From sequence record MH252123.1: DNA of 64,000 bases; one strand, written 5' to 3'. The notes beneath the pieces are model-generated. The model had not been told where the DNA came from. It saw only the letters and a program-made list of their open reading frames with translations, and did no database searches. This DNA is from Klebsiella phage ZCKP1. The position numbers and the translations under genes are program-made. Positions 27,512-63,652 of this stretch are shown piece by piece; the first letter of the stretch is position 1, and each line of letters opens with the position of its first letter.

Positions 27512-28455
27512 TATAGCTCCTCAAATAAAAGTCTACGACGCTCATTCAACACATCAATGTGATAATGAGTCCTGACATACTTAGCTAATGCTAATCCTTT
27601 CTCCATGCAAACATCGGGAGCACTTAATAAGTATTCCGTAATATCTTTCCACTCGGAAGGTGTTTCAGCAAAGAATAACAAATCTTTAAACTCTTGTGTA
27701 TGATAATTCTCACGAGGAGAGCAGATTAAAGGTAAACCCTTAGCACCTGCCTCAAGAATTTTAAGATTGCTTTTTGCATTATTAAACACGTTATCGATCA
27801 ATGGTGCAAGACTGATTTGATGACCATCGTAAGATTCCATGTAGTTGGCATATGGTCTTACACCTTCATAAACACAAGTTGGTGCTACATTTTCTCTGAT
27901 TACAGACCATTCACGACTACTTAAAACTTCGGAATCCCTACGAAAACCACATATTGTAAGATCTTTACCAAAATCGGGCAAGATAGCCAAATCTTGTTTA
28001 TGTGTTTCACTTCCAGCCCAGACTAATGGAGTTTTGGAGTAGCGATCACGGGTCAACACAAATTGACCTTCATCGTAAGGAAGTCCATTAGGGATTATGT
28101 GCACATTATCATTGTATTGTGAAAGTTCAACTTGCAAGGCAGGTGTCGTAGTTGTAACAAGATCACTGTGCTCTAAAAACCATTTTAAATGTTCACGAAT
28201 ACCTGATTCAAAAATACCTTCTAACATGTGTCCTTTTGGAATAACTAAAGAGTCATCCAAATCCATAACCATTTTAAAGCCCAGGTTTTTAAGGGCTAAA
28301 AAGCCCTCTTTACCTTTTGTTGGCACTCCGTTAAAAACGAAAACGTTGTGTTTAGGTTGTGAAGAGAACTGCCTTGAGTAAGGCAGCACTACCCTATGGA
28401 AATCGCAGACACTATAATTGATTCCGTTACGATTGTCAAGAATTATTTGTCCCAT
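27511..28455 (-). CDS. glycosyltransferase (GT-B-like), paralog 1
   Basis: 314 aa. It is a clear paralog of the next gene, sharing DLDD and VWAG motifs and the overall layout. Confidence 0.45.
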   Translation of the reverse strand: MGQIILDNRNGINYSVCDFHRVVLPYSRQFSSQPKHNVFVFNGVPTKGKEGFLALKNLGFKMVMDLDDSLVIPKGHMLEGIFESGIREHLKWFLEHSDLVTTTTPALQVELSQYNDNVHIIPNGLPYDEGQFVLTRDRYSKTPLVWAGSETHKQDLAILPDFGKDLTICGFRRDSEVLSSREWSVIRENVAPTCVYEGVRPYANYMESYDGHQISLAPLIDNVFNNAKSNLKILEAGAKGLPLICSPRENYHTQEFKDLLFFAETPSEWKDITEYLLSAPDVCMEKGLALAKYVRTHYHIDVLNERRRLLFEEL

Positions 28456-28462
28456 ACTTCAC

Positions 28463-29410
28463 CTACAAACTTTCAATGACCTGGCGTCGCAATTCGTTTG
28501 CATCTGCCAGATTATAATGTGTTCGAACATGTTCCGCTAAGAACAAGCCGCGATCTTCCCGATAGTTCGGATTGCGAAGAAGCTTAACAATTTCGTAATG
28601 CCATTCTGCTTTATTCTCTGCATAAGCAACAGCGCGAGCATCTACAGGGTTAAAATAAGGTAATACCTTAGAACAAACAATCGGAATACCTTTTGCCCCA
28701 GCTTCAAGGATTTTGAGATTACTTTTACAATTATTAAAATCATTATCTACCAAAGGAGCTATAGCAATAGCATGACTTTCGTAAACACTCATGTAATTAT
28801 CTAAATCTTTTACAGCAGCTTTATATTTGGCATTTGGTAAATTTCTGCGAATCTTAATCCACTCTTGTCCTGTGATGCTTTGTGATGCTTCATATCCCGC
28901 AATAGTAAGAAGTTCATCATCGAAAGTATTAGAGACTAGTCGTAAGTCGGGTTCGTGACTAGCACCGCCAGCCCATACAACAGGGGTACCGGATGAACGA
29001 TCATTTGACAAAGTGAATTGTCCACTATCAAAAGGAAGTGCATTTCGGATCACAACAACATTCCTATTTAAGTGACGGATCTTATATGCCAAATATTCCG
29101 TAGTCACAATGACCACATCAGCAAGCTTAATCATAGCCACAATAGCGTGAGTGTTTGACTCATATAAACTTGCTAAATAATGTTCTGGATTAAGTTGGTA
29201 GAAATCATCTAAATCTACAACAATTTTAACACCTTGACGTTTCAGGGACAGAACATATTCTGCACCTTTAGAATGAATACGGTTAAACACGACAACATCT
29301 TTCTTAGGCTGAAAATTATTGTTGTTAAATGGTATAACAATACGATGATAATCACAACCGCTGTGAGGTTTTGCATCAATTTTCAGTTTAGTCCATTTTT
29401 TATTTGACAT
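28463..29410 (-). CDS. glycosyltransferase (GT-B-like), paralog 2
   Basis: Paralogous to 27511..28455. The start was moved to the ATG (MSNKKW) at 29408-29410, which has AGGAGG 9 nt upstream. Confidence 0.45.
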   Translation of the reverse strand: MSNKKWTKLKIDAKPHSGCDYHRIVIPFNNNNFQPKKDVVVFNRIHSKGAEYVLSLKRQGVKIVVDLDDFYQLNPEHYLASLYESNTHAIVAMIKLADVVIVTTEYLAYKIRHLNRNVVVIRNALPFDSGQFTLSNDRSSGTPVVWAGGASHEPDLRLVSNTFDDELLTIAGYEASQSITGQEWIKIRRNLPNAKYKAAVKDLDNYMSVYESHAIAIAPLVDNDFNNCKSNLKILEAGAKGIPIVCSKVLPYFNPVDARAVAYAENKAEWHYEIVKLLRNPNYREDRGLFLAEHVRTHYNLADANELRRQVIESL

Positions 29411-30083
29411 GTGCCAGTGCCTCCTCATAAGAAATTCGGATTTTCCCATTTTTAATATCTTCTAAAGACGCTTTATATTCTTCCCAGTTAATGCCAATAG
29501 CAGCTTCTTTCTCTTCTTTTGTCAGGTTAGCAAAAGGCATAGGATTGTTTCCAAAAACATCGTCTGGGTGGATATAAGCCATGATACGAAGTGGACAAGG
29601 TATTGCCTGAATACCCTGATTCAAACCAGCAGCTTTCAAACGGTGTACCCATTCAGCATCTTCAAAACCATAGCCGTGAGTGTAAGGGCGGAAATAACCC
29701 ATCTTCTCAACAACGGCACGAGAATACATTGCAAATTGACACATTGCAAGCTCCCAGAGAATAACTTCTCCTTTACTCCCAACAACTTTATCTTTGAAAT
29801 ACTCCGGCATACCAAAGAAATCCCATCCTCCAGAGACAGCTTGATCTACAAAATATGTTTCCCATCCCTCTATGATTGGGTAGCAATCGTCGTCAAAAAT
29901 AAACCAATAATCATAACCTTCTTCATAAAACTGGTGCATAAGTTCATTCCTGGCATAAGCTACACCTTTACGATCTGGATCGTTGAATACTCGAAAATCT
30001 GCACGTGGATCTGTTACAAGGTAGTCTTTAAGTGGACGGACACCGACAGTGATAACACCCACTCCGATTTTAATATTTTCCAT
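29400..30083 (-). CDS. glycosyltransferase (GT-A-like, DxD)
   Basis: 227 aa with a DDD motif (FIFDDDCYP). Confidence 0.45.
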   Translation of the reverse strand: MENIKIGVGVITVGVRPLKDYLVTDPRADFRVFNDPDRKGVAYARNELMHQFYEEGYDYWFIFDDDCYPIIEGWETYFVDQAVSGGWDFFGMPEYFKDKVVGSKGEVILWELAMCQFAMYSRAVVEKMGYFRPYTHGYGFEDAEWVHRLKAAGLNQGIQAIPCPLRIMAYIHPDDVFGNNPMPFANLTKEEKEAAIGINWEEYKASLEDIKNGKIRISYEEALAHVK

Positions 30084-30091
30084 TTTCTCTC

Positions 30092-30655
30092 CTAAATAGT
30101 TTTACTGTGATCGTGACAGTGTAATAAATGATGTATAGACCGTTGAGGATTTGTTTGACCTAACCTGTAAATGTGAAACAGATACATTCCCCGCATCAAT
30201 CCTAACCTCTTTCCTTTTTCATGTAAAGTGCGAGAGAAAATTAAGTCGAATTGGATAGATTTTTCTTCGAAAGGAATTTCATTCCACAATGATTTTCTAA
30301 AAAGCAAAAAGAAACCTGCCAGAGGTGTTCCGAAAGGAACTTCTTCAACACTCACTTTATGATATTCTCTTGCAATCTTAGCATATTCTATATGGTTTAG
30401 AATATCTGGATCATCGTTAATTTGGTTAGAGAAAAGCTGATAACCACTGCCTAACCTGTTACAAGTTGCACCTATTACATCAAAAGGCGGGTTTGACATA
30501 ACAAGCTCTTCAAGCATAGATGGTTGATCAGGTAGGAGGAACATTGTATCGGTATCTCTTAAACACACCCAACTATCATCTGGAAGAACGGCAATGGCTT
30601 CATTGATAGCCTTGCCGATATTTCCTGTCAGATAGGGAGTAATATAATAAATCAT
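30092..30655 (-). CDS. glycosyltransferase-like protein (GT-A-like)
   Basis: 187 aa with a DTD motif (CLRDTDTMF). It is the fourth of four consecutive sugar-transferase-like genes. Confidence 0.4.
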   Translation of the reverse strand: MIYYITPYLTGNIGKAINEAIAVLPDDSWVCLRDTDTMFLLPDQPSMLEELVMSNPPFDVIGATCNRLGSGYQLFSNQINDDPDILNHIEYAKIAREYHKVSVEEVPFGTPLAGFFLLFRKSLWNEIPFEEKSIQFDLIFSRTLHEKGKRLGLMRGMYLFHIYRLGQTNPQRSIHHLLHCHDHSKTI

Positions 30656-31977: not shown

Positions 31978-32580
31978 TTATGGACATTCATACCATTCTT
32001 TTTTACCACCGAAGGCCATCACCACATCACAAATATCCAGACCCGCTTTGCCTACACCATATGCTTTCAGCTTCCATTCCCCATCTTCACGAACCAAGGA
32101 AGCCACGTGGCAGATTGTGTTGCCAGCTACTTCAGGAGCCAGGAAGTCAAAATCCAGAATTTCCACATTGCGCTCGGAGTCGAAGATTTTAAGCATACCT
32201 TCAGAAGCATGACCAAAACGTTTCAGACCTGTATCATCATCAATGGTCAGAACAAAGGCAATCTCTTGTGCATCAGGGGAGATTTTAGCCAGAGTAATAT
32301 CAATCTGCTCCATGCTGCCAGTTCCATCACGAACATCGTCACCAGCGAAGGTAGAACGTTCAGGATCAAACTTGTTAGCATAGCAAACCAGATGACGTGC
32401 AGACAGCATTTCAGGATTGCCAGCGGCATTGTGACGACAAACCAGTGCACTTACATCCAGATCCAGTTTAGAATCAGATTTCCAAGAGAATTCCAGGCGC
32501 AGTTCTTTCAGAGCCGGAGCAACTTTCTTCAGGGAAATTTTTTCGCTAGAGCCTTTTTTCAGGGAAATTTTATCAGTCAT
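31978..32580 (-). CDS. terD: TerD-domain protein
   Basis: 200 aa. It has the N-terminal KISLKKG..KISLKK repeat. The body (DLDVSALV..., GDDVRDG, SLVREDGEWKLKAYG) matches TerD/TerZ family architecture. Confidence 0.7.
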   Translation of the reverse strand: MTDKISLKKGSSEKISLKKVAPALKELRLEFSWKSDSKLDLDVSALVCRHNAAGNPEMLSARHLVCYANKFDPERSTFAGDDVRDGTGSMEQIDITLAKISPDAQEIAFVLTIDDDTGLKRFGHASEGMLKIFDSERNVEILDFDFLAPEVAGNTICHVASLVREDGEWKLKAYGVGKAGLDICDVVMAFGGKKEWYECP

Positions 32581-32595
32581 CTTTTGTCTCCTCTA

Positions 32596-32865
32596 TTATT
32601 TAAGTGTAATACCAGTTACAGTCAATTCTACTTCCAAAAGCTTAGATGTGTTTTGGATTGATACTAATTGTGCATGATGGTTTAGTTCTACAGCAGAATA
32701 ATCATTTTCCCCATCGTCTACTTTTAAATAAACAATGATTTCACTAAGGTCTAAACCATTTTCGTCAAATGCATTTTCATAGACGAAAGTATCTCCTACA
32801 TCCAAATCTTTAATGGTAAGGCATCGTTTATTTACTTTTTGCTCATCAATTTCGAAGTTTAACAC
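32596..32865 (-). CDS. small beta-rich protein, paralog A
   Basis: 89 aa, paralogous to 33887..34231. Shared motifs are DLDVGxTFxY...AxExxGLD and ExxLxVTxITLK. Confidence 0.4.
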   Translation of the reverse strand: MLNFEIDEQKVNKRCLTIKDLDVGDTFVYENAFDENGLDLSEIIVYLKVDDGENDYSAVELNHHAQLVSIQNTSKLLEVELTVTGITLK

Positions 32866-33094
32866 TTCTTCCTCCTAATGTTATCTCCGGTTTGTATATA
32901 CGAAGAATTATAGCATTTTCATTTTCTTTGTCAACCCATTCTTCATAATCAGGCCATACATGAATCTCTACTCTACTTACAATATCTTCCATTCGCACAG
33001 TCCCAATGAAATACTCTTTGAGACTGCGCATAATGAAAGCTTCTCTCTCACGCCAATAATTTTCTATGACTTGAGAGGCAAGCTCGTCGATCAT
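32846..33094 (-). CDS. hypothetical protein
   Basis: 82 aa. Confidence 0.35.
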   Translation of the reverse strand: MIDELASQVIENYWREREAFIMRSLKEYFIGTVRMEDIVSRVEIHVWPDYEEWVDKENENAIILRIYKPEITLGGRSVKLRN

Positions 33095-33885
33095 TTTTTA
33101 GCACCTACTTTAACAACCCACTCTCCGAACTCTTCAGATAAGAGTTTGTCATAAAGTTCTGAATCTGTCAAGTCTAAATCTTTAATGCCAATAAAACCAA
33201 CATTATCATAAGCATTTGCCAGTTCTTTCAGGAAGCCAAACTTCTCATTACCAACGCCAACCATGAACCAATAAATAGGTTTATTCTTATTCTCTTCGAT
33301 AAGATGACGAACAGCACTAGGATCACCATTCTCACCATCAGTCTGGAAGAATACAACACCAGGGGTAACGTCAGCACCTGGTTCAGATACAGCTACAACT
33401 TTTTCACGCTCTACAGACACTGTTTCAGTTTTACCAAGCAGACGATTAAAGAAGCCTTTCTTTGGAGCCTCCTCTTGCACCACTTGTTTAGTGGTAATAT
33501 ATTTAGTAACAGTACCAAAATACTCATCGTAGATATCCGCCATTACAGGGGCGTAATTTGTTCCACCTCCGATACGAACATTACGCATACATTTACCAAC
33601 ATAGTCATCGTAAACATCTGCTGTTGCTGGAGTAAGCTCTTGGGAACTCGTATTGAAGGCCCACATATCAATTTGTTGATTATCGTCGAACAGCATACCA
33701 AAAGGAAGCAGTTTACCTACAAAATCACTCACTACCCCACTAGAATATAGACCATGCATACTACCAGAAATATCTAGAGCACATGCTACACGAAGAACAA
33801 TCTTACCTTCATTCAGGTTCTTATTCTTTTTCAGAGAGAAAGCAAGGTTTTCTTGACGTTTTTTCAGGCTGATTTTCTCGGACAT
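33091..33885 (-). CDS. vWA-domain protein (TerY-like) with TerD-like N-terminal ISLKK peptide
   Basis: The N-terminus is MSEKISLKK...FSLKK. A MIDAS motif (DISGSM) and downstream T/D ligands make up the von Willebrand A fold. Confidence 0.65.
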   Translation of the reverse strand: MSEKISLKKRQENLAFSLKKNKNLNEGKIVLRVACALDISGSMHGLYSSGVVSDFVGKLLPFGMLFDDNQQIDMWAFNTSSQELTPATADVYDDYVGKCMRNVRIGGGTNYAPVMADIYDEYFGTVTKYITTKQVVQEEAPKKGFFNRLLGKTETVSVEREKVVAVSEPGADVTPGVVFFQTDGENGDPSAVRHLIEENKNKPIYWFMVGVGNEKFGFLKELANAYDNVGFIGIKDLDLTDSELYDKLLSEEFGEWVVKVGAKK

Positions 33886-33886
33886 A

Positions 33887-34231
33887 TTATTTCTCCTTCT
33901 TAAGTGTAATATTGGTAACTTCTAAATCTACTTCCACCATATTTGTATCTGGTGGGATGCAATGAGTATAGCCTCGTTGTGCTAGTGATCCATTAATACA
34001 GATCGCACTGTTTGTGGAATTTTTAATGAACACCAAGTTACGGTAGGTATCCAACCCTGCGTCTTCATAGGCATCATAATACATGAATGTGGCCCCTACG
34101 TCAAGATCTTCGAAAGCAATAGGTAAATCCTGACTTTTTTCTTCTTGAATATTGAATCTAAACACGCATACCTCCTCTACCAATTTTGAAGCCCAAATCG
34201 TAAGCTTCCTTAGTGATCTTTTGTAACTCAC
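33887..34231 (-). CDS. small beta-rich protein, paralog B
   Basis: 114 aa, paralog of 32596..32865. Confidence 0.4.
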   Translation of the reverse strand: MSYKRSLRKLTIWASKLVEEVCVFRFNIQEEKSQDLPIAFEDLDVGATFMYYDAYEDAGLDTYRNLVFIKNSTNSAICINGSLAQRGYTHCIPPDTNMVEVDLEVTNITLKKEK

Positions 34232-34721
34232 TTATAGGAAGTGTTACAAGAGGATCATCTTCTTCAATTTCCATCTTGTCATCTTCTGTTTCAATGAGAG
34301 TATTATGCACTTTGTGATAAGGGTTGTCAACACGTTTAAACTTATTCTTTTCTGTGCTGAAAAAACAATCTGGATCTTCTTCACCATCCCCCCAACCTTG
34401 GTTAGGATCTCCGTCAGATTGTTCTGTAGGGATTTCACCTGTAAAGTACTCTTCCAGCACCATAGCAATACCGTCTCTTGGATTTGAGGAATGCATTAAA
34501 TCACAAACCTTACCCCAATCCGTAGCCCATTCGAACCGTTCACGAACGCCATTTTCACCCTCTTTTCCAGAGAAAACACAACCATAACTATCATAGTTGC
34601 CATACATCTCTTCAATAACAACACCGTCCTTCAAAAGAAAGAGGTAGCAAGGTGATCCGTCGAAAGAAGTAGAAAGGGCAGCTTTGCCCGATTCTTTGCA
34701 CAAAAAGCTAAAACAACCCAT
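34158..34721 (-). CDS. hypothetical protein
   Basis: 187 aa, acidic. Confidence 0.4.
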   Translation of the reverse strand: MGCFSFLCKESGKAALSTSFDGSPCYLFLLKDGVVIEEMYGNYDSYGCVFSGKEGENGVRERFEWATDWGKVCDLMHSSNPRDGIAMVLEEYFTGEIPTEQSDGDPNQGWGDGEEDPDCFFSTEKNKFKRVDNPYHKVHNTLIETEDDKMEIEEDDPLVTLPISELQKITKEAYDLGFKIGRGGMRV

Positions 34722-34924
34722 TACAAACCCTCCTTCAGATTATCAAGAGCTACAGTGGTTTCACAAGAGTCTCCATAAGTTTTATGATGTTCCAGAAAAG
34801 CTTCGGGTCCACCCCAGTCATTATCTTGTGTATTCCAGCCATCAATAAAAGCATCTTCAATGATTGTGATCAGTTCTTGTCGGGTTAACTGGATAATATT
34901 AGGATCGTTATCGTAGTTAAACAT
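34721..34924 (-). CDS. hypothetical protein
   Basis: 67 aa. Confidence 0.3.
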   Translation of the reverse strand: MFNYDNDPNIIQLTRQELITIIEDAFIDGWNTQDNDWGGPEAFLEHHKTYGDSCETTVALDNLKEGL

Positions 34925-35089
34925 CTTCTTCCTCCTCTAAAATATGGAACCCGTAATTACAATAATCCTGAAAGGTTTCGTGCGCAAGATCTTCTATATC
35001 CTCTTGAGACATATCATCTTCAATTTCGATATCCACAACCTCATTGCATCCACACCAAGCAGTTTCAATATTCACTCGTAATATTTTCA

Positions 35090-35284
35090 TTACTCCTCCT
35101 CATTGAAGTCAATATCTGCAAGGAGTTCGAATTTACGGAAGTTACGACAACCTTCATAAATATAACAATCACGACAAACTGCTAGAACACTTGGGGGATA
35201 TATACCTCCCATCGGTGCGAATCGTTTTTCGTCATCATAACGGACACCAATGTCTTCATCAATTATATAGATACGGATTCTCAT
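35090..35284 (-). CDS. hypothetical protein
   Basis: 64 aa. Confidence 0.3.
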   Translation of the reverse strand: MRIRIYIIDEDIGVRYDDEKRFAPMGGIYPPSVLAVCRDCYIYEGCRNFRKFELLADIDFNEEE

Positions 35285-36393
35285 TTACCAAGCCCTCGTT
35301 TCACAGCAGCTACCATCCCGTCTTCCAGAGATTGAACTTCATTAATATAATCAACACGAGCAGCACGGGCTTCCGTATTGATGCGGTTAGTTTCTTCCAA
35401 CATCTTAACCAAGTTTTCCTGATCGTGACGCAGAGTTTCAATATCCAACACTTGACGGTTAGCCAGTGCTGCTGCTTCGATCTGATTCTGTGTGGCAAGA
35501 TCGCTACCCAGTTTAATTGCCAGGTTAAATTCATCAAGAACGTTATTCTGCGTCTCTGCTGCTTTCATTTGACGTAAGCTCTCGATATACATTGAGAAGT
35601 TAGCAGAGTAAGCAGGAATAACATTATTTACTATGTTACGCGCAGATCGCATTAAGCTTGCAGAAACTTTTTGCATACCTTGTACACGCGGTCCCATTTG
35701 GACACACAGTAGGCGCAATGCTTTTAAATCTGCAATACGAATCTCCAGAAGATCCAAAGTATCTCGGATCACTTGTCGCTGTTCTACTGCATCTTCTGGA
35801 AGAGCAGCCAAAGCTTGTTCTTCTTTTTCATAGGTTGCTGTTAGAAGCTGCATATCTCGGTTCAAACTTGCAGCATATTGTCCAATAGCTTGATGTAGCT
35901 TTTCAAGATATACCAAGGAATCTTCTTCTTTGCGAATATCCATTTGAAGGTTCTTTACCAACTCTTCAATACGGTTATTAACATTATCAAACTCCCCAAA
36001 CAGGTCTTCTTTCATACCCATAACTTTTTTAATGAGTTTAGTAATACCCTTGCTTTGTTTAATAGAGTTTGGATCAAGTTGTTTTGCCTGTTTAATCAAA
36101 GCTGTGAGTCGTTCACTCATCTGATCGCCTTGATTACTACGTTGATGTTTTAATACCTCGGCATTCAAGGAACGCAAGGTTGTTCCTGCCTCTGCCCCAA
36201 TCTCTTCGATCTCTTGTCGGGTCATAGAAGGCAAAACTGGAACTTCTTGCGGTGCTGCTGGTGCATAAACAGGACTGGCATCTAACACACTTGGAGCGAA
36301 TACAGATTTACTTGCATCTGTTGTTGCAGCGAATACACTCATTTCAGACTTCTTCTGACCACCAGTAGCTGCTTTTAAAAATGGACTTGTCAT
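35281..36393 (-). CDS. TelA-like (toxic anion resistance/KlaA family) protein
   Basis: 370 aa and all-helical. It has long coiled-coil heptads and conserved blocks resembling TelA. It sits in a cluster with TerD, TerC and a vWA protein. Confidence 0.55.
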   Translation of the reverse strand: MTSPFLKAATGGQKKSEMSVFAATTDASKSVFAPSVLDASPVYAPAAPQEVPVLPSMTRQEIEEIGAEAGTTLRSLNAEVLKHQRSNQGDQMSERLTALIKQAKQLDPNSIKQSKGITKLIKKVMGMKEDLFGEFDNVNNRIEELVKNLQMDIRKEEDSLVYLEKLHQAIGQYAASLNRDMQLLTATYEKEEQALAALPEDAVEQRQVIRDTLDLLEIRIADLKALRLLCVQMGPRVQGMQKVSASLMRSARNIVNNVIPAYSANFSMYIESLRQMKAAETQNNVLDEFNLAIKLGSDLATQNQIEAAALANRQVLDIETLRHDQENLVKMLEETNRINTEARAARVDYINEVQSLEDGMVAAVKRGLGK

Positions 36394-36980
36394 TCTTCAT
36401 TCTCCTCTTCTGCATCTCTTATATATGGTGAAACACCGTACTCTTTAGCTACTTTAACCCAATCATCCCATTTATACAACCATAATTTTCCTTCAGTTCC
36501 TTCTTTATCTGATTTCAACCACATGTTAGGTTGCTTACCTGGGTACATGCGATTAGGTTTACGATTATAACCTCTAACACATCTTGTCGCAAACCTATCT
36601 ACCAGAACAAGAACATATTTATATTCGTGGTTCAACGGCTCTTTGGAAGTGGCTTTAGGATTAGCCCCTAATTCTGCTGCCAGTTTTTGCCAATGAGCAC
36701 CATGCCTACTAAACTTACCCATACAACCATCAATAGCGTGAGCAATTTCGTGCTTCATTGTATCCACGATCATATCTCTTGTGGAGTTCTTATGCAAGTG
36801 CCAATTTACAACAACAATCTTATCTCGGTAGTTGCACCAACCAAAAGAGTTATTCACTTTGTTTCTAACGCAAGCTTTATATCCTGCTTCACGTAACATG
36901 TTGTAGTAAACAGGAAAATCTTCTTTTATTTCCTGCATCACTTCCCACCACAAAAGTTGCAAGTCTCTCTCGGTATGCAT
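36390..36980 (-). CDS. SprT-like zinc metalloprotease domain protein
   Basis: HExxH motif (MKHEIAHAIDG) with a downstream His, and a Trp-rich N-terminus. Confidence 0.5.
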   Translation of the reverse strand: MHTERDLQLLWWEVMQEIKEDFPVYYNMLREAGYKACVRNKVNNSFGWCNYRDKIVVVNWHLHKNSTRDMIVDTMKHEIAHAIDGCMGKFSRHGAHWQKLAAELGANPKATSKEPLNHEYKYVLVLVDRFATRCVRGYNRKPNRMYPGKQPNMWLKSDKEGTEGKLWLYKWDDWVKVAKEYGVSPYIRDAEEENEE

Positions 36981-36983
36981 AAC

Positions 36984-37577
36984 TTACACCTTAAAAGTGA
37001 AATGCGTGGTCGTGGCTTCAAAATCAGGGCCAGATAAACGTGCACTGAAATCTGAAATATTTGTAATTAAAAAGCTTTTATGCATACCTAACACAGCCAC
37101 GCTTTCAATATCTTCTACTAACATTTCAATCATGTTAGAAACATGGCTGAACGTAGGGTTTTGTTTTTTGATGGTGTAGAAAGAAAGATTCTCACCTGCT
37201 GTATAAGATACCTCTTCAAAATCTTTAATCGTATATTGTGTGCCATCAGTAAAGAAAATGGTAGCTTTATTAGTAGCACGTTTCTTGTTTTTTGGTCCTT
37301 TTTTACGTTTACTGCGAGTAGGCAAACCGTTTGGGAACACCATAGCTACAAATTCTTCAGGAGAAACCTCCTTACCGAAATCATAACCATAAGAAACAGC
37401 ATCTATAAACTCGTCGTCTTCATTTTTAAAATAATGAAAATAAGGCCAATTTGAGAGATTATCAAGCATCTTATGCTCATCCACAGCAGAGAACGTATCC
37501 CTCAAAGCGCGTGTAATTTGCAAAGCATTAGGCAAACTTTTAACACCTGTAATGGAAGTACGAATAGAAATTGTCAT
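36984..37577 (-). CDS. hypothetical protein
   Basis: 197 aa. Confidence 0.4.
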   Translation of the reverse strand: MTISIRTSITGVKSLPNALQITRALRDTFSAVDEHKMLDNLSNWPYFHYFKNEDDEFIDAVSYGYDFGKEVSPEEFVAMVFPNGLPTRSKRKKGPKNKKRATNKATIFFTDGTQYTIKDFEEVSYTAGENLSFYTIKKQNPTFSHVSNMIEMLVEDIESVAVLGMHKSFLITNISDFSARLSGPDFEATTTHFTFKV

Positions 37578-37591
37578 TGTTTTTCTCCTTA

Positions 37592-38029
37592 TTAACGTCG
37601 CTTGCTACGAGATGAACTCTTTTTACTTAAAGGGCTATTGTAAGATTTACGAGTTGTATAGCTACTATTTGTTTTAAAAGTTTGTCTCGGCTTTTCATAA
37701 GTTTTTATCTCTTGTTTAGGCTTACCATAAAAATTAGTTTTCGGTTTAGGTGTATTATAATGCTTATTAATAATCGTTCTGTTATCGTTATAATCCCCAC
37801 TGTTACGATTACTACCACCACTCATCATATGCCCTAACAACATACCTGTAGCAAACTCACCAACACCGCTACTACTAGAACCGCCACCATTGTTGATAAT
37901 AGTTGTATCTCCGTCAGATCCTTGTTGAGCGTATTGTTGAGGAGGTTGTTGGTATTGTGCAGGATTTGTTTCATCCTCGCAAGCTGTTAAAAAGATACAA
38001 CCAATTAAAATCAGGGCTAGTTTTTTCAT
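37592..38029 (-). CDS. lipoprotein (Gly/Ser/Gln-rich)
   Basis: Start set at the ATG (MKKLALILIGCIFLTAC) at 38027-38029 with RBS AGGAAA. Lipobox is LTAC. The mature part is Q/P-rich then G/S-rich. Confidence 0.55.
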   Translation of the reverse strand: MKKLALILIGCIFLTACEDETNPAQYQQPPQQYAQQGSDGDTTIINNGGGSSSSGVGEFATGMLLGHMMSGGSNRNSGDYNDNRTIINKHYNTPKPKTNFYGKPKQEIKTYEKPRQTFKTNSSYTTRKSYNSPLSKKSSSRSKRR

Positions 38030-38216
38030 ATTTGCTTTCCTCATTTTGACTATTAATACATCTGTGTTTGAAATCTCCAGAGAAGCAATAAAGTTGCTCT
38101 CCATCTCGGTATAAACTTACTTTACTGCCGTTGATTACGCTTGTCAATACAAAAATTACAACAAACAACCCTATTGCAAAACAAATATTTTCAAACACAA
38201 TCAACAAGTATTTCAT
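37971..38216 (-). CDS. small membrane protein (N-terminal TM)
   Basis: 81 aa. Its TM helix (LLIVFENICFAIGLFVVIFVLTSV) overlaps the lipoprotein gene start in another frame. Confidence 0.3.
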   Translation of the reverse strand: MKYLLIVFENICFAIGLFVVIFVLTSVINGSKVSLYRDGEQLYCFSGDFKHRCINSQNEESKYEKTSPDFNWLYLFNSLRG

Positions 38217-38563
38217 TTTAAAAATACCTCATCATCAGTTTCATTATCCCAGAAGAACAAATCCCAACCATTCGGATCATTCCATTTGGCTGCTGGAGAA
38301 GTCCATATTTGTTCGATATCAATATTCAAAACTTCACCGTTTCGTTTTGAAACAGCTTTAGTTAATTCCCAATGAGATACAGGCTCTACTTCCCCTGAAC
38401 CACTCCCACAACAAGCTACCACGTTAGGAGGCAACTTAATTGGATCTTTGGTCACGATCATAACGCTTACCCCAGGGTAAACTTTTGAAAGATAATCTAA
38501 AACGTAATCCACATCACCAGATAAATCCCAAACAAGTTCTTGAATTTCATCAAAATTATTCAT
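38213..38563 (-). CDS. hypothetical protein
   Basis: 116 aa. Confidence 0.4.
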   Translation of the reverse strand: MNNFDEIQELVWDLSGDVDYVLDYLSKVYPGVSVMIVTKDPIKLPPNVVACCGSGSGEVEPVSHWELTKAVSKRNGEVLNIDIEQIWTSPAAKWNDPNGWDLFFWDNETDDEVFLK

Positions 38564-38579
38564 AAGTCTCTCCTATAAA

Positions 38580-38598
38580 ATAGCCTCCCGAAGGAGGC
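38580..38598 (-). terminator. rho-independent terminator downstream of terC
   Basis: On the - strand AGCCTCC ttcg GGAGGCT is followed by ATTTTATAGG. Confidence 0.5.
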
Positions 38599-38605
38599 TC
38601 ATCTA

Positions 38606-39580
38606 TTAAACAGCAGCTTCTTCTTTTTCAGGGAAGATAAAGCTTGCAATAACACCAAGAGCTAATGTGCCTAGAACAATCATCAGACTTACGTTAGGGG
38701 AAATATCATGCGGGAGGAATGACCACTTGGCATGAAGTGTTTCACCGAACGGGTGATACATAAGTTTAGCACCGACAAATACCAGAACCACAGCAACAGC
38801 CTTCTCTAAGTGAACCAGATATTTCACAGCCACACTTAACACAAAGAAAAGTGCACGTAAACCAAGAACAGCCATCAGCATTGCAGAATAAACTAGCAGA
38901 GGTTCTTGTGTCACACCGATCACAGCCGGAACTGAATCAAAAGAGAAGACAATATCTGTAAGCTCAATAACAAACACACAAAGAAGAGCAGGAGTTGCAT
39001 ATTTAATACCATTCTTAATGGTGATGAACTTTTCACCATCCAGTGCATTGTGCACAGGCAGAACTTTACCTACTAAACGAACAGCCCAATGTTTAGAGTA
39101 ATCAATATCCTCTTCTTCGTCACCACCTTTGATGATAGCCACGGCAGACCAAGCTACAATCAAACCGAACAACACTTGGACCGACCAATGAAGGTTAAAC
39201 AAAGCGGTCCCTGCTGCAACAAAAATACCTCGGAAGACAATGGCTCCTGCAATCCCCCAAAGTAAAATCTTATGTTGGAGATGTGTGCTCTTAATTCCAA
39301 AGCTTGCAAAAATTGCCATGAACACCATCAGGTTATCTACAGAAAGACTTTTTTCCAACACATAGCCACTTAGGAAAAGCGCGGCAAACTCTTTACCATG
39401 TTCTACCCAAATGAATGCGTAATATCCTAAAGCTAAAGCAATCCAAAAAACAGACCAAAGCAAAGCAGATTTAATTCCAATTTCTTTATTCTCTTTATGA
39501 CCAAAGAAATCGATACCAATAGACAATGCCAAAATACCAACTAAAACAACTACATCAATAATTGGGAAACCGAGTTGCAT
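38606..39580 (-). CDS. terC: TerC-family integral membrane protein
   Basis: 324 aa with about 9 TM helices and the TerC motif (DIVFSFDSVPAVIGVT). Confidence 0.7.
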   Translation of the reverse strand: MQLGFPIIDVVVLVGILALSIGIDFFGHKENKEIGIKSALLWSVFWIALALGYYAFIWVEHGKEFAALFLSGYVLEKSLSVDNLMVFMAIFASFGIKSTHLQHKILLWGIAGAIVFRGIFVAAGTALFNLHWSVQVLFGLIVAWSAVAIIKGGDEEEDIDYSKHWAVRLVGKVLPVHNALDGEKFITIKNGIKYATPALLCVFVIELTDIVFSFDSVPAVIGVTQEPLLVYSAMLMAVLGLRALFFVLSVAVKYLVHLEKAVAVVLVFVGAKLMYHPFGETLHAKWSFLPHDISPNVSLMIVLGTLALGVIASFIFPEKEEAAV

Positions 39581-39597
39581 TCTTTTCTCCTCTCTTT

Positions 39598-39659
39598 GCG
39601 GGGGAACTATTCCCCCCGCTTCATGTGATATATCTTACTCTTTTTAAGAACTATGTCAA
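39598..39659 (-). promoter_or_regulatory. early-type promoter (TTGACA-16-TAAGAT) plus 5' stem-loop module driving terC
   Basis: The - strand reads TTGACAtagttcttaaaaagagTAAGATatatcacatgaaGCGGGGGGaatagttCCCCCGCaaagagAGGAGaaaagaATG. This is the same module found before the early genes at 61.7-63.7 kb. Confidence 0.55.
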
Positions 39660-39662
39660 CAC

Positions 39663-39884
39663 TTATTTTGTTGAATGAGAGGAAAAGATTCCTCGTAATA
39701 CCGCCAAAATAAACGAAACACAAACCACGGTCCAGAAGGTTACTGGGACAGTGATATCTGCATGACCCATAACTTCAGCAACATAGTTGTAAGCCAGCAA
39801 CAGTAACCAAGCTGGAATCAAACTAAGCATAAAAGCAATAACAAAAAAGCTTACCACTGCAACAATACCTGCAAAAACACCCAT
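39663..39884 (-). CDS. small membrane protein (2-3 TM)
   Basis: 73 aa and very hydrophobic. Confidence 0.45.
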   Translation of the reverse strand: MGVFAGIVAVVSFFVIAFMLSLIPAWLLLLAYNYVAEVMGHADITVPVTFWTVVCVSFILAVLRGIFSSHSTK

Positions 39885-39896
39885 ACTAATCTCCTC

Positions 39897-40370
39897 TTAA
39901 AGTTTATAAATAGTCACATCGTGACCTGTTTTTACTAAAGTTTCTTCAATCATCACTTGGATGATAGCCCAATTACCTCCAGCATGTCCCGCTCCAATCA
40001 TAGGTAAACCGATCTTACATTTTTGGTCACGGAGAAGCAAATCATTAGCCATAGCTATTAGTGCATCGTACAAGGCATCATAGTCCAACTGACGACCTTT
40101 AGCATTATATCCGTAACGGTATTGCCCGTAGAGATTATATACCAAAGGGTCTGATTGTTCGTCTGGCACCCCTAAACTAAAAGAACCTAACTTACTTTGA
40201 TCACCAGCCATTGTGTCTAAATCTGCCGCATATGCATAAGGGAATGCTCGTTTAATTTGCGGAGCAATTCCTGCCCCCATATTACACATACAATTGCAAC
40301 AATGAGCAATAACAGTTACTTCACCTGCTTTAGCGGCATCAATAAGATTACCTGTTTTCATTTTAAGCAT
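39897..40370 (-). CDS. Macro domain protein (ADP-ribose binding/hydrolase)
   Basis: The GNLIDA...VIAHCCNCMCNMGAGIA and IGLPMIGAGHAGGNW blocks match macro domain motifs. The start was chosen at the ATG (MLKMK) that has RBS TAAGGAG. Confidence 0.6.
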   Translation of the reverse strand: MLKMKTGNLIDAAKAGEVTVIAHCCNCMCNMGAGIAPQIKRAFPYAYAADLDTMAGDQSKLGSFSLGVPDEQSDPLVYNLYGQYRYGYNAKGRQLDYDALYDALIAMANDLLLRDQKCKIGLPMIGAGHAGGNWAIIQVMIEETLVKTGHDVTIYKL

Positions 40371-40383
40371 TTTTAGCTCCTTA

Positions 40384-41211
40384 TTACAGAATGTGTTGTT
40401 TTGTGTAACGATCCAAGAATTCAAAGTTTTCAGCATACTTTGAAATTCGGTTGTAACCTTCTCCCAAACATCCGAAGAAAAGTTGCTCTACATAGTAGTG
40501 TGGCAATTGGCTAAGAATGATTTTGAAGTCTTCGTGATTTTGGCCCATAAGATACTTAATAGGACGAACAAGACACTGTGCATCACGTTCTTCATTAATC
40601 ATTTTAACAAACGCTTCTGGTGTATTAATATAATTAAAATTCAGTTTAGCTTCGGTATCTGCTTGATTACCTTCATATTTTGCAAAATACAAGAAGTAAA
40701 CATCATTTTTAACTTGATTTTCATCAAGGATCTCAATCAGTTTGTCTTCATGAGTTCCAGTGATATTTACATCATCAATAAACACAAGCTTCTTATCACC
40801 CCAGAATTCTTTGTTGCAGTAGAATGTATCCCCATCAATAAGTTTCTTACGACTAGCTTTATCCAAGAAACCATAATCGTTGATATAGCTAACTTTACGA
40901 TGAATAATATCTAGTTCTGCTGAACGACCTTGATCATATTGTGATTGCAACATATTAAAGTAATTAATAAAATGATCTGTCATCATTGTTGCAGCATTAT
41001 GCACATGGTTGTAAGGAGAAGGAATGATAACAAATTGTTCCCCAATATGTTTCATTGCCACTTGAGCAAAAAACTGAAGTGCCAATTCTTTACCCATACG
41101 ACGCGCAGCCTGGTTACTACCAAATTTCAATTTTGAATAATCTTTAATATCAAAAGTAGCAGTTTCCAGGTCATCAAATTTATTTGCAAAAATTTGAGTT
41201 TGATTACGCAT
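40384..41211 (-). CDS. phosphoribosyltransferase (PRTase type I-like)
   Basis: PRPP-binding motif KLVFIDDVNITGTH. Confidence 0.55.
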   Translation of the reverse strand: MRNQTQIFANKFDDLETATFDIKDYSKLKFGSNQAARRMGKELALQFFAQVAMKHIGEQFVIIPSPYNHVHNAATMMTDHFINYFNMLQSQYDQGRSAELDIIHRKVSYINDYGFLDKASRKKLIDGDTFYCNKEFWGDKKLVFIDDVNITGTHEDKLIEILDENQVKNDVYFLYFAKYEGNQADTEAKLNFNYINTPEAFVKMINEERDAQCLVRPIKYLMGQNHEDFKIILSQLPHYYVEQLFFGCLGEGYNRISKYAENFEFLDRYTKQHIL

Positions 41212-41881
41212 TTACAATTTCTCCTCTTTTAAGTTTCTCTAGTAAGTCGTTAGGGTTCTTAATATGACAGAAGTTAATACCTATGTCAACACATTTACCA
41301 TCAAATTCTTCGCTGTCCCCAACATGTAAAATCTCTTCAGCCTTCAAAGGAATGCTTGAATATGTGGCGGTCCTAACAAAGAATCTAGGATCTGGTTTAC
41401 ACAACAGATGTTCGTCTGAAAAATGCATAAATTCAAAACAATTCCAACTGTCGAACATGCAAGCACGACGCAAAATATCCCCAGATATAAAATTAGTATT
41501 GCTTTTAATACTAAGATCATATTTACCAGACAAGTATAGCAAACAAACTGGCAAATCTAAAGCAATATGTGGAGGAAATTTAAGAAACCATTGCTCACAC
41601 TCAAAACGCATTTGTGCAGATTCTACAGGGGTTAAACCTATCTTTCTTCCCAACATATTCCATGCATATGCTACACCTTCTGCACACCCATTTAGTGCAG
41701 CATTATCCATAATTTCTTTGGCATCTTTATATGCTTCTTTTGCCGCACGTTCAGACATTCTACCATATGTAGCAATAGTGTGCGTACGTGCATCTGCATA
41801 GTTTTGATTGGCAGAAATAAGAGTATTCCATACATCAAAAGAAATATGTTTTATTGTCATACTAGGCCCACCACGCATCAA
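41204..41881 (-). CDS. HAD-superfamily hydrolase
   Basis: Motif I-like FDVWNTL, motif III K-PDP and motif IV VGDSEEFD. Confidence 0.5.
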   Translation of the reverse strand: MMRGGPSMTIKHISFDVWNTLISANQNYADARTHTIATYGRMSERAAKEAYKDAKEIMDNAALNGCAEGVAYAWNMLGRKIGLTPVESAQMRFECEQWFLKFPPHIALDLPVCLLYLSGKYDLSIKSNTNFISGDILRRACMFDSWNCFEFMHFSDEHLLCKPDPRFFVRTATYSSIPLKAEEILHVGDSEEFDGKCVDIGINFCHIKNPNDLLEKLKRGEIVNA

Positions 41882-42467
41882 GATTTAAGTTACTGTCTAC
41901 CACAACTTGTTCTATGTGGTAGCCTTTTATCTGTATCCCACTGTTCAAGAGCATATCATACGCTTCATTGAAACGCAACTTATCTTCTGCGGAATATAAG
42001 CGAGCATTATAAAATCGGTAATCAATTTCTTCTGCATTAGAAGAAATACGGAAGAAGTTTGTTTCTACTTCGGGATCACTTGCTGAAGTCTTAATGTGAA
42101 CTTCTCCATAATTTTCTTTACTTAGATCCATGAAAAGAACACAGGCAACATGTTTAAACATTCGTTCCAGTTTGTAACGAACAACATTGAAACCTGCATT
42201 CTCAAGTTTTTCTACACACTGCAACATTAAAGTAGTGTCGAGATCGCTTTGATACTTTGTTAACATACGATCACGTTGAGACTTTGTATCCCGATGTAAA
42301 TCAATTGTTGTGCATTTGGCACCAATAATCTTAGCTGCTTTCATCAACTCTTCAGAACTAACGTTAGATAAAGTAAGATGAAAATGGGCTTTCCACACTT
42401 TTTTAGCAGGGACACCAAAAGATTTATCCCCACTATTCGGCATGTTGACTACTACACTATGTTGCAT
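41862..42467 (-). CDS. hypothetical protein
   Basis: 201 aa. Confidence 0.4.
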   Translation of the reverse strand: MQHSVVVNMPNSGDKSFGVPAKKVWKAHFHLTLSNVSSEELMKAAKIIGAKCTTIDLHRDTKSQRDRMLTKYQSDLDTTLMLQCVEKLENAGFNVVRYKLERMFKHVACVLFMDLSKENYGEVHIKTSASDPEVETNFFRISSNAEEIDYRFYNARLYSAEDKLRFNEAYDMLLNSGIQIKGYHIEQVVVDSNLNLDAWWA

Positions 42468-61764: not shown

Positions 61765-61823
61765 TTGACAACAAACAACAACCTGATAAGATGTATCACA
61801 TAGGGCGGGAAGTGGTTTCCCGC
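61765..61823 (+). promoter_or_regulatory. early promoter module P1 (TTGACA-16-TGaTAAGAT, then conserved TATCACATAGGGCGG and a stem-loop)
   Basis: -35 at 61765-70 and extended -10 at 61784-92. The hairpin GGGCGGGAAgtggTTTCCCGC lies at 61803-61823. Confidence 0.6.
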
Positions 61824-61848
61824 TCGTAACAGAAGAGAGATTATCATC

Positions 61849-62121
61849 ATGGCATCATATAGCGCAACAATGATCGTAGCTGGCACAACTGGTAAACCTA
61901 TGAGCGGTGGCGGATCTTTCGCTAATATCAATATTGACGGGCGTTTATCCCTGGACGCAGCGATCGCCATTGCACGGGAAACATTTAAGAAAGAATGTAA
62001 TTTCAACAAGCAAGATTATCTCGGTTTCGCTATTGAAAAAACCGCGCGCTTTGTTGATTATAAAAGCCCGAAAATGGTTGACACTACATTAAAAGCGCAA
62101 GATGTAGCGTTTTTGCTTTAA
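61849..62121 (+). CDS. early small protein
   Basis: 90 aa, RBS AGAAGAGAG. Confidence 0.45.
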   Translation: MASYSATMIVAGTTGKPMSGGGSFANINIDGRLSLDAAIAIARETFKKECNFNKQDYLGFAIEKTARFVDYKSPKMVDTTLKAQDVAFLL

Positions 62122-62124
62122 GGC

Positions 62125-62180
62125 TTGACATTAACGAATAATTTGTTAATATGTTACATAAAGCGGGAATAGTTCCCGCT
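62125..62180 (+). promoter_or_regulatory. early promoter module P2 (TTGACA-16-TAATAT plus stem-loop AGCGGGAAtagTTCCCGCT)
   Basis: -35 at 62125-30 and -10 at 62147-52. The hairpin lies at 62162-62180. Confidence 0.55.
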
Positions 62181-62197
62181 GTTTGTAAGGTGGTAGA

Positions 62198-62455
62198 ATG
62201 TTTTACATCAAATTAAAAGGTCACGTGATCGCGTTCAAAGATAACGCTTTTTACAGATTAGCAAAATATGCGTTAATACATCCCCACTATGTTTATATAA
62301 GGGGGCGTGATGAAATAAATATCTTTGATCAAACAACATGCGAAAACATCGAGATCCGCAAGGTTGGCGTACGTGATTATCGTACATCTTTCTACCCTTG
62401 CAAGGATTCAGCAAGTCTTTTTAAAGTATGCCAATTGTTGAAAAAAGGTGGTTAA
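62198..62455 (+). CDS. early small protein
   Basis: 85 aa, RBS AAGGTGG. Confidence 0.45.
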   Translation: MFYIKLKGHVIAFKDNAFYRLAKYALIHPHYVYIRGRDEINIFDQTTCENIEIRKVGVRDYRTSFYPCKDSASLFKVCQLLKKGG

Positions 62456-62456
62456 T

Positions 62457-63014
62457 ATGGGCCGCGAATATGTGATCCAGTCTTGGGTAAAACACGAAGC
62501 AGATGATCCGCGCATCATTCCCGATCATCTTATCGATGAATCCACGGGATATAGCGGTGAGCAAATAGGTAACAGATCAGCACGTAGTAACGGCAACGTA
62601 AAAGCGCGCTATGTGCGCCCTGGTTGGCTGGCAAATGGTAACGCTGATTTATCCAGCGCGGGAGATCCTAGCGACGGCGCGAAAGATAATCCCTTGTACA
62701 AAGTTGATCCGGCTTTTCGTGTCCTGGATGAATACCCCAGCAAGATAGCGGCGCTTGATGAAGCTCTGGAAAGTAAGCGCATCACCTGGACCGCTTACAA
62801 CATGGCAAAAAACGTACTTGATGGTAAGCTGATCCAGGCTGAAAGAAAATTAGCCAAAATTGCAGCCATAGCCCAGGAGGAAGACGAGGAGACAACGGAA
62901 GAGGAAGAGTACGAAGAGATCCCGCCGTTGTTGTGTGTTGATGCTTTTCCTGATTATCAGCCGACAGAGGAAGAAAAAAGGATCGCGCTAGAAAACTTTG
63001 AAAATAGTCTTTGA
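62457..63014 (+). CDS. early protein with strongly acidic C-terminal region
   Basis: Start at ATG 62457 with RBS AAGGTGG. It ends in a poly-Glu/Asp tail (EEDEETTEEEEYEE). Confidence 0.45.
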   Translation: MGREYVIQSWVKHEADDPRIIPDHLIDESTGYSGEQIGNRSARSNGNVKARYVRPGWLANGNADLSSAGDPSDGAKDNPLYKVDPAFRVLDEYPSKIAALDEALESKRITWTAYNMAKNVLDGKLIQAERKLAKIAAIAQEEDEETTEEEEYEEIPPLLCVDAFPDYQPTEEEKRIALENFENSL

Positions 63015-63069
63015 CATATCGCCGCCACTGGCATAATATTTACCACGTAGGGCGGCAATGGTGCCGCTC
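63011..63069 (+). promoter_or_regulatory. early promoter module P3 (TTGACA-17-TAATAT plus TTACCACGTAGGGCGG and a stem-loop)
   Basis: -35 at 63011-16 and -10 at 63034-39. The hairpin GGGCGGCAatggtGCCGCTC lies at 63050-63069. Confidence 0.55.
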
Positions 63070-63097
63070 ATAGTGAAATTATGCAAGAGGTTTACAA

Positions 63098-63193
63098 TGA
63101 TTAATAAAGAAAATAGCTTGACGGTTGGAACGATTAACGCTATCATTTTCGCCGTTCCATTTTGGGTTGTAGTAGCGGCTATTATTTTCTAAA
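63098..63193 (+). CDS. small membrane peptide (31 aa)
   Basis: ATG with RBS AGAGG. It has a hydrophobic segment (AIIFAVPFWVVVAAIIF). Confidence 0.3.
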
Positions 63194-63201
63194 AAATATT
63201 C

Positions 63202-63262: not shown

Positions 63263-63283
63263 AAAACAAAAAAGGGTAACACA

Positions 63284-63646: not shown

Positions 63647-63652
63647 AAACGG

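Follow-up and report, generated by a model that had tools for sequence, protein, structure and literature searches.

The 64,000-nucleotide (nt) stretch of Klebsiella phage ZCKP1 analysed here (sequence record MH252123.1; the window, for short) carries, from position 42467 down to 31978, a block of about 21 open reading frames (ORFs) that follow one another on the minus strand without a break, and in this block genes of the Ter type are interleaved with small phage ORFs over 10 kb, with several promoter-like sites among them (Table 1). The initial annotation of the window had named six families there, TerD, vWA, TelA, TerC, a phosphoribosyltransferase (PRTase) with a HAD hydrolase, and a macro domain. 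A Pfam scan of 20 ORFs of the block recovered all of them on the strand and at the positions where they had been placed, the TerD, TerC, TelA and PRTase families with E-values that exclude chance, and the motifs that had been read, DISGSM, DIVFSFDSV and KLVFIDDVNITGTH, were each found in the translations. Full bacterial Ter systems include ATP-grasp and other biosynthetic enzymes among their members, and Anantharaman, Iyer and Aravind reportedly described in 2012 a terZABCDEF group accompanied by terWXY and a biosynthetic module. The idea that the phage holds the whole of such a set did not survive the scan, in which TerB, ATP-grasp and extra TerD paralogues were absent. What does stand is the likeness to bacterial components, since TerD, TerC, TelA, TerF-type vWA, PRTase and HAD match the list summarised in PMC7824862.

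Nor can the presence of these genes in a lytic phage be called unexpected, as had been done, because Ter clusters of virulent phages are already in print and near-identical genomes are already annotated. At the DNA level the full 10.5-kb block is 98.6% identical to Escherichia phages nieznany, ESCO13 and phAPEC8_ev052 and to some 60 further records, and on the strength of this full-length identity the phage of the window is placed in Phapecoctavirus, subfamily Stephanstirmvirinae. Several of the near-identical records bear the labels 'tellurite resistance', 'TelA-like', 'TerD family' and 'Integral membrane protein TerC', and also 'VWA domain-containing', 'macro domain-containing' and 'phosphoribosyltransferase'. 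Ter genes in this and other phage groups have been reported since 2012: the Ter cluster of ZCKP1 itself has been published (PMC6141743), FBKp34, another member of the Stephanstirmvirinae, has terC, terF with a vWA domain, terD and telA (PMC8386662), phiPsa374 has terC, terD, terF and telA in a study that finds ter genes widespread in phages (PMC9796965), and alx-like genes of a ter cluster have been described in phi92 and in a relative (PMC11162368).

Table 1. Features predicted in the Ter block of the window, in order of position.
Feature	Position	Strand	Evidence and remarks
TerD-domain protein, 200 aa (core part)	31978..32580	-	PF02342, E 3e-28, 98.9 bits (cut-off 25.3)
Paralogue B of phrog_11278, 89 aa, GTG start	32596..32865	-	phrog_11278, E 7e-45; directly 5′ of TerD
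Putative consensus sigma-70-like promoter, TTGACA-16-TATAAT with TG	32907..32934	-	Pattern match; hexamers match at 12/12 positions; 5′ of the paralogue B-TerD pair
TerF-type vWA protein, 264 aa (core part)	33091..33885	-	PF10138 vWA-TerF-like, E 3e-37, 129 bits
Paralogue A of phrog_11278	33887..34165, open frame to 34231	-	phrog_11278, E 5e-50 over residues 24-114 of the long ORF; directly 5′ of the vWA gene
TelA-family helical protein, 370 aa (core part)	35281..36393	-	PF05816, E 3e-33, 116 bits
SprT-like HExxH zinc metalloprotease	36390..36980	-	PF10263, E 4e-9; HEIAH motif
Predicted lipoprotein, 145 aa from an internal Met, Ser/Gly-rich tail	37592..38029	-	Lipobox MKKLALILIGCIFLTAC (LTAC)
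Small hydrophobic membrane protein	37971-38216	-	Translation
Terminator-like GC hairpin and T-run	38582..38599	-	Directly 3′ of the TerC stop
TerC/Alx-family membrane protein, 324 aa (core part)	38606..39580	-	PF03741, E 3e-40, 138 bits
Putative promoter TTGACA-16-TAAGAT, then TATCACAT, then 9-bp GC hairpin (39619-39598, dG -16.5)	39598..39659	-	5′ of the TerC ribosome-binding site and ATG
Small hydrophobic membrane protein, 73 aa	39663..39884	-	phrog_16065; 5′ of TerC; orthologue in phi92
Macro domain protein, 157 aa, TARG1/DarG/SCO6735 clade	39897..40370	-	PF01661, 22.8 bits (cut-off 22; marginal)
PRTase_3 type I phosphoribosyltransferase, 275 aa, C-terminal helical domain (core part)	40384..41211	-	PF15610, E 2e-41, 142.8 bits
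HAD-fold hydrolase, 218 aa from ATG (core part)	41204..41860	-	NCBIfam HAD-IA models, E 1e-8
201-aa protein	41862..42467	-	phrog_22504; predicted tandem ferredoxin-like fold (AlphaFold pLDDT 82)

What belongs to the phage version of the system was delimited by comparing the window with phi92 (L002), FBKp34 (L003), a Rhizobium phage (L004) and two phage-like NCBI metagenome contigs (L005 and L006), and also with 21 bacterial loci and 20 IMG/VR viral loci. This comparison of gene content shows a predicted phage Ter core of six genes: TerC, TerD, the TerF-type vWA protein, TelA and a HAD-PRTase_3 pair. TerC, TerD, vWA, HAD and PRTase_3 are common to the window, phi92, FBKp34 and both contigs, and TelA to the three isolates. 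Both contigs have these genes in a tight cassette, TerC-X-TerD-Y-vWA-HAD-PRTase, with uncharacterised proteins of 311-402 residues as X and Y; TelA was not detectable in these compact cassettes, and the proteins of about 310-400 residues received no Pfam or PHROG support as divergent forms of it. TelA, vWA and/or TerD lie at most 10 kb from the HAD-PRTase pair in half of the IMG/VR loci (10/20), and at L035, L039, L040 and L042 TelA and vWA are found a few kb from the pair, with TerD immediately following or no more than about 3 kb away on either side.

The core also appears to be maintained by selection. The core primase/helicase was matched with at least 60% identity in 132 phage records; for the PRTase, for TerD and for TelA the count at subfamily-level identity is about 130 Stephanstirmvirinae records each. 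Between the window and phi92 the ratio of non-synonymous to synonymous substitution rates (dN/dS) is 0.10-0.17 for TerD, TelA, TerC and vWA (about 0.11 for TerD and 0.10 for TelA, which are 81% and 79% identical to gp172 and gp178), compared with 0.08 for the housekeeping protein NrdG and 0.15 for the endolysin; these values are rough, with synonymous sites near saturation, and they suggest that the core is under purifying selection. Towards FBKp34 the identity of the same proteins is very uneven (TerC 88%, PRTase 50%, vWA 44%, TerD 28%, TelA 19%), which points to a recent exchange of TerC, or to a replacement of the other parts. On this evidence the core parts are replaced independently of one another and the set as such is retained, a pattern that argues for a selected joint function.

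TerD aligns over its full length with Klebsiella TerD (2kxt, E 1.5e-15) and also with the TerD structure 3ibz, and the Ca2+-site motifs DLD and GDD are kept. In the vWA protein the metal-ion-dependent adhesion site (MIDAS; D38-x-S40-x-S42, T109 and D183) is intact and invariant in five homologues. An ISLKK peptide at its N terminus had been described as TerD-like; the peptide is there, as part of an SLxK..E..SLxK hairpin that is conserved throughout the vWA-TerF-like family. With TerD there is no more than a marginal resemblance (E 0.012), and we rejected the peptide as a TerD remnant. TelA matches phrog_5890, 'tellurite resistance', at E 2e-139, a family that PHROGs classes as moron/auxiliary. 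Two small paralogues accompany these genes (33% identity to each other, E 3e-13), and both combine an apparent GTG start with a strong ribosome-binding site (RBS) and stand directly 5′ of a Ter gene, one of vWA and one of TerD. For paralogue A the start is probably the GTG at 34165, preceded by GGAGG at 6 nt, and in paralogue B an AGGAGG lies ahead of the GTG. In phi92 only the vWA-linked copy is present, again 5′ of the vWA gene.

TerC is the membrane protein of the core. It scores 319 bits against the TerC/Alx model TIGR03718 of NCBIfam (cut-off 246), and its alignment with E. coli Alx covers the full length, at 33% identity. Five acidic membrane residues of Alx are required for Mn2+ export, which is abolished when they are mutated (PMC10197570), and all five are kept in the phage protein, where E76, D82, E206, D209 and D215 align with E86, D92, E213, D216 and D222 of Alx. 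A recent capture of the host alx gene was rejected, because the protein identity is only 33% and none of 5,426 E. coli genomes gave a match at the DNA level.

Because a promoter, a hairpin and a terminator flank it, TerC is predicted to be an autonomous, single-gene transcription unit. Its 82-nt leader is made up of the promoter, TATCACAT, a 22-nt hairpin, the RBS and the ATG, and it is one of six copies of a module that recurs in the window as TTGACA-16/17-TA(A/T)nAT, about 10 nt that often read TATCACAT, and a GC-rich hairpin of the type GGCGGGAA..TTCCCGCC. The five further copies lie at 61765-63680 on the plus strand, each 5′ of a small ORF. In phi92 the same module precedes TerC, with stem bases that differ and yet still pair, and an equivalent hairpin follows the gene. 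The module looks like a class of early promoters with a 5′ stabilising stem-loop. Of the earlier claim that it precedes TerC and supports early expression, the first half is thus real as a feature of the sequence, and early timing is what we infer from the resemblance of the promoter. An alx-like riboswitch 5′ of TerC was rejected, as the Rfam scan found no family at gathering score anywhere in the window and no alx-type yybP-ykoY leader ahead of TerC.

The last two genes of the core encode the HAD-PRTase_3 pair. In the PRTase the loop for phosphoribosyl pyrophosphate (PRPP), DDVxITGTHE, is invariant in 20 homologues, and the AlphaFold model (pLDDT 92) combines a type I PRTase core with a private C-terminal helical domain. 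Foldseek relates this model with probability 1.0 to HGXPRT (6-oxopurine PRTases), ComF and PyrR, at TM scores of only 0.37-0.45. The GenBank label 'orotate PRTase' has no specific support, since neither profile nor structure searches gave a match to that enzyme. The HAD protein, which likely starts at ATG 41860 rather than at TTG 41881, is the weaker call (19.5 bits in Pfam, below the cut-off of 26.4, and NCBIfam HAD-IA scores far below their own cut-offs). It possesses motifs I-IV, and the nucleophile Asp, the Ser of motif II, the Lys of motif III and the GDxxxxD of motif IV are invariant in 8 homologues; motif I reads FD-V-W-N-T-L, with a Trp at Asp+2 in 8/8 of them (the window and L002-L008).

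The two reading frames overlap, and the HAD gene stands directly 5′ of the PRTase gene in 20 of 21 bacterial and 18 of 20 viral loci, an arrangement by which HAD is the predicted obligate partner of PRTase_3. In Bacteroidales, in a metagenome-assembled genome of the candidate phylum Peribacteria and in Pedococcus the pair adjoins TerD paralogues; in Rhizobiaceae loci (contigs and plasmids) and in Rhizobium phages it has no Ter gene nearby. Because it stands alone in the one group and beside TerD paralogues in the other, we regard the pair, from its gene neighbourhoods, as a mobile unit of two enzymes, coupled to Ter proteins in many cases but not in all. Near it lie an NMNAT/Nudix gene in the Rhizobium phage (L004, 5857-6420) and PnuC with an AAA_28 protein in one metagenomic phage contig (L006, 13029-14612), neighbours of the NAD-salvage type that may be a coincidence or may hint at the substrate. 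An origin of the block from enterobacterial ter plasmids of the IncHI2 type was discarded: among plasmids PRTase_3 matches only rhizobial ones and one of Hymenobacter.

Other genes of the block fall outside this core. To judge from their distribution, the macro domain protein, the SprT-like protease and the 201-residue protein are lineage-specific add-ons and not Ter parts. The macro domain had been counted as a member of the set; among the window, phi92, FBKp34 and the compact cassettes (L005, L006), only the first two have it. At L039 a macro gene lies within about 7 kb of the HAD-PRTase pair. The macro call, marginal in Pfam, is confirmed by solved macrodomains, of which SCO6735 is the best match (5e3b, E 1e-12), with DarG models at E 1e-10, and in order of kinship SCO6735 and BT1257 come closest, followed by DarG and TARG1. 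The loops GAGIA and IGAG..GG are read as ADP-ribose-binding loops, and the protein is best described as a predicted ADP-ribose-type module, not as a demonstrated DarG equivalent; against the DarG equivalog model it reaches 36 bits, where the cut-off is 250. Alignments to 5m31 and 4j5r show G-Q in the phage protein where DarG and TARG1 have T-K, a position whose Lys (K80 in DarG, K84 in TARG1) we take to be catalytic, and the missing Lys weakens its candidacy as a DarG orthologue or anti-DarT factor.

The stop codon of the SprT-like gene overlaps the TelA start (ATGA), and outside the near-identical relatives (EF1-1 and L009) the gene was found only at the IMG/VR loci L032 and L033, and in neither phi92 nor FBKp34. 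The 201-residue protein is matched over its full length by PADLOC models named 'AbiEi' (E 5e-13). AbiEi antitoxins consist of an N-terminal winged helix-turn-helix and a C-terminal antitoxin domain and are paired with AbiEii. No Pfam AbiEi family matched the phage protein, no AbiEii gene lies nearby, and searches with the AlphaFold model gave no specific or close solved structural neighbour and no winged helix-turn-helix one, so the predicted fold does not back the PADLOC match. The protein has invariant His, Thr and Lys residues and is also present at L031, L032 and L033. Distant homologues occur far from any PRTase, one directly 5′ of the anti-CBASS gene Acb1 (L051) and one near a SIR2 gene (L050), and possibly the protein is a candidate counter-defence gene unrelated to Ter. 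The lipobox of the lipoprotein comes from our own reading of the translation; the same 145-residue coding sequence is annotated in EF1-1, and the phi92 orthologue, gp180, has an annotated signal peptide. Beyond the block, NrdG/NrdD adjoin it on one side and a SleB-type endolysin gene on the other, and another ribonucleotide reductase (RNR) gene is also a neighbour; just 3′ of the endolysin, at 28000-30655 on the minus strand, stand four glycosyltransferase genes in a row (so annotated in EF1-1).

What might such a set do for a virulent phage? Lipoproteins and small membrane proteins are typical factors of superinfection exclusion in other phages, and we count it in favour of a role at the membrane that the block encodes one predicted lipoprotein and two proteins of the small membrane type. 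As a guess, quite possible if somewhat more apt to fail than to hold, we propose that the block represents, for the Stephanstirmvirinae, the Ter module borne by phages, a conserved accessory system that would manage the envelope and divalent-cation state of the infected cell and would exclude superinfecting phages. In this model TerC would be transcribed alone, right after infection, from its consensus host-type promoter, and would reside in the inner membrane as an unregulated, Alx-like exporter of Mn2+ or other divalent cations. Beneath the membrane, TerD with its Ca2+-binding fold, the vWA protein with its MIDAS and the helical protein TelA would form a metal-dependent sensor and scaffold, and the HAD-PRTase_3 pair would supply that complex with a small ligand made from PRPP and similar to a nucleotide or nucleoside. 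The net effect would be to stabilise membrane integrity and ion balance after the injection of the phage's own DNA and to guard the infected cell from further insults of that kind, whether from superinfecting phages, from pore-forming colicins or from abortive-infection effectors that attack the membrane. Tellurite resistance would not be expected from such a module.

We lean towards this model because of the phenotypes of plasmid ter operons, because of a published proposal of exclusion and because of the context of terD in gut jumbo phages. Plasmid ter operons are linked to phage inhibition and colicin resistance, as cited in PMC6141743 and PMC8386662; the use of jumbo-phage Ter clusters against superinfecting phages (superinfection exclusion) has been proposed (PMC7824862); and gut jumbo phages transcribe their terD operons at a high level, have one such operon beside a pspA-like gene and also carry a Ca2+ ATPase (PMC12880540). 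We further count in favour of the model the family memberships with intact export, MIDAS and PRPP sites, the wide retention and low dN/dS of core genes, the cassettes and other loci that tie the pair to Ter genes, and the TerC unit with its own promoter, hairpin and terminator.

Several observations weigh against it. The function of phage Ter genes is stated as unknown in PMC11162368 and PMC9796965, and our full-text searches found no published phenotype test of phage Ter copies for tellurite, phage inhibition or pore-forming colicins. The complex of TerD, vWA and TelA is a proposal of ours, the acidic GDGDDE stretch at the TerD Ca2+ site is only partly conserved, being partly replaced, and the early expression of TerC follows from promoter resemblance, just as the signature of purifying selection follows from rough dN/dS values. 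The DxD of phosphatases, in which Asp+2 is the general acid/base, is not found in the HAD protein; membership of the HAD fold holds, and simple nucleotide dephosphorylation is an uncertain assignment because an invariant Trp replaces that Asp. Finally, the product of the pair need not be a Ter ligand, since the pair also exists in Rhizobiaceae and Rhizobium phages without Ter genes nearby; no Rhizobium phage was among the matches of the TerD search.

The alternative that fares best, although we consider it unlikely, is that these genes serve metal housekeeping and have no role in exclusion: TerC, like Alx, would lower or redistribute Mn2+ (or Zn2+ or Ca2+), and TerD and vWA would buffer it, so that phage RNRs and replication proteins work under optimal conditions. 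The five export residues kept in TerC (PMC10197570) suit this explanation, as does the contribution of K. pneumoniae TerC to zinc resistance (PMC12054061); the block adjoins NrdD/NrdG and another RNR gene, and the lack of an alx-type riboswitch control is consistent with forced export. However, housekeeping of metals leaves the conservation of TelA, vWA and the PRTase-HAD pair together with TerC unexplained, and some phages (L035, L039 and L040) have TerD, TelA and vWA close to the pair but lack a TerC gene within 10 kb.

The pair itself gives rise to two further explanations, both of which strike us as rather improbable. One keeps the Ter proteins together: the product of HAD-PRTase_3 may be a nucleoside or nucleotide of a non-canonical kind, a second messenger encoded by the phage. 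TerD, vWA and TelA would read this messenger and gate the inner membrane by way of TerC and the small membrane proteins, as a protection from incoming DNA or from pore-forming immune effectors. This explanation builds on the invariant Trp of the HAD protein, the private helical domain of the PRTase and the overlapping frames.

The other, to which we would give about as little credence, separates the membrane Ter proteins from the enzymes: HAD-PRTase_3, here with the macro domain, would make, recycle or destroy a nucleotide related to NAD+ or ADP-ribose, or a signalling nucleotide, against host immunity. That the pair is a self-contained unit also found without Ter genes fits such anti-defence chemistry, and so do its NAD-related neighbours in L004 and L006 and the macro gene, which adjoins it in the window and in phi92 and is no more than about 7 kb away at L039; the neighbouring 201-residue protein, with its match to PADLOC 'AbiEi' and a homologue that adjoins Acb1, suggests a counter-defence neighbourhood. 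These associations come from few loci each, however; the macro protein does not have the Lys that we take to be catalytic in DarG and TARG1 and is missing from most cassettes, and nothing homologous to known sponge or NAD-reconstitution proteins turned up. Moreover, many phages and bacteria that are not related to one another have TerD, vWA or TelA next to the pair, which argues for a role linked to Ter.

Classical resistance of the host to tellurite, xenobiotics or oxidants, or a block of non-functional hitch-hiking DNA, would agree with the GenBank labels 'tellurite resistance' and 'tellurium resistance protein' and with the moron/auxiliary class that PHROGs gives to TelA, but we hold both to be very improbable, resistance because the phage group is described as virulent, which would limit the phenotype to one latent period, and because TerB and most of terZABCDE are absent (the initial annotation had likewise set tellurite resistance aside, and PMC9796965 judges tellurium resistance unlikely for the equally partial set of phiPsa374), and passenger DNA because of the retention in about 130 of 132 records and the low dN/dS.

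The question of what Ter systems do dates from the 1970s, and their phage copies have been noted repeatedly. Our analysis adds no new kind of system; it adds a sharper phage Ter core of six genes, retained by almost all members of one phage subfamily, an autonomous and probably early TerC unit that keeps the export residues, and an odd HAD-PRTase_3 pair. If the proposal of envelope protection and exclusion is right, these genes would affect how therapeutic phages of the phAPEC8 type compete with other phages, colicins and abortive infection. If instead the pair makes a second messenger, a lytic phage would be running its own small-molecule signalling circuit, and the cassette would offer a minimal and tractable system for Ter function.

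How, then, does the block compare with the systems that carry a name? Its closest counterpart is gp172-gp187 of phi92, where the same genes occur in the same order (HAD, PRTase, macro, TerC, TelA, vWA, TerD, endolysin) with protein identities of 48%-81% and the same unit of promoter, hairpin and terminator around TerC; phi92 differs in having neither the SprT-like gene nor the 201-residue protein, and its macro domain is part of a longer protein of 238 residues. In FBKp34 (gp124-gp142) all six core families are present, with TerC 88% identical, whereas there are two TerD genes, the macro gene is missing, the gene order is another and TerD and TelA are very divergent. E. coli Alx and the phage TerC have both acidic membrane motifs in common, and the phage protein lies above the NCBIfam TerC/Alx cut-off; the genes differ in their leaders, a consensus promoter with a short 5′ hairpin in the phage and the yybP-ykoY riboswitch in E. 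coli.

With regard to the enzymes, the pairs of Rhizobiaceae and Rhizobium phages are likewise two overlapping genes, 36-45% identical and with the same invariant motifs, including the Trp at Asp+2, but they have no Ter protein within 10 kb, and no TerD was detected in the Rhizobium phages. The macro protein has the fold of the TARG1/DarG/SCO6735 macrodomains, and its G-Q recurs in SCO6735 and BT1257; unlike DarG, it has no DarT partner. Lastly, bacterial and plasmid Ter systems share with the phage block the TerD, TerC, TerF-type vWA, TelA, PRTase and HAD families (PMC7824862), and in some bacteria the HAD-PRTase_3 pair also stands beside TerD paralogues. The phage block differs from them in having, among its 20 ORFs scanned, one TerD protein and no TerB, no TerZ/A/E paralogues and no ATP-grasp or other biosynthetic enzymes, and enterobacterial ter plasmids differ in offering no match for the phage PRTase_3.

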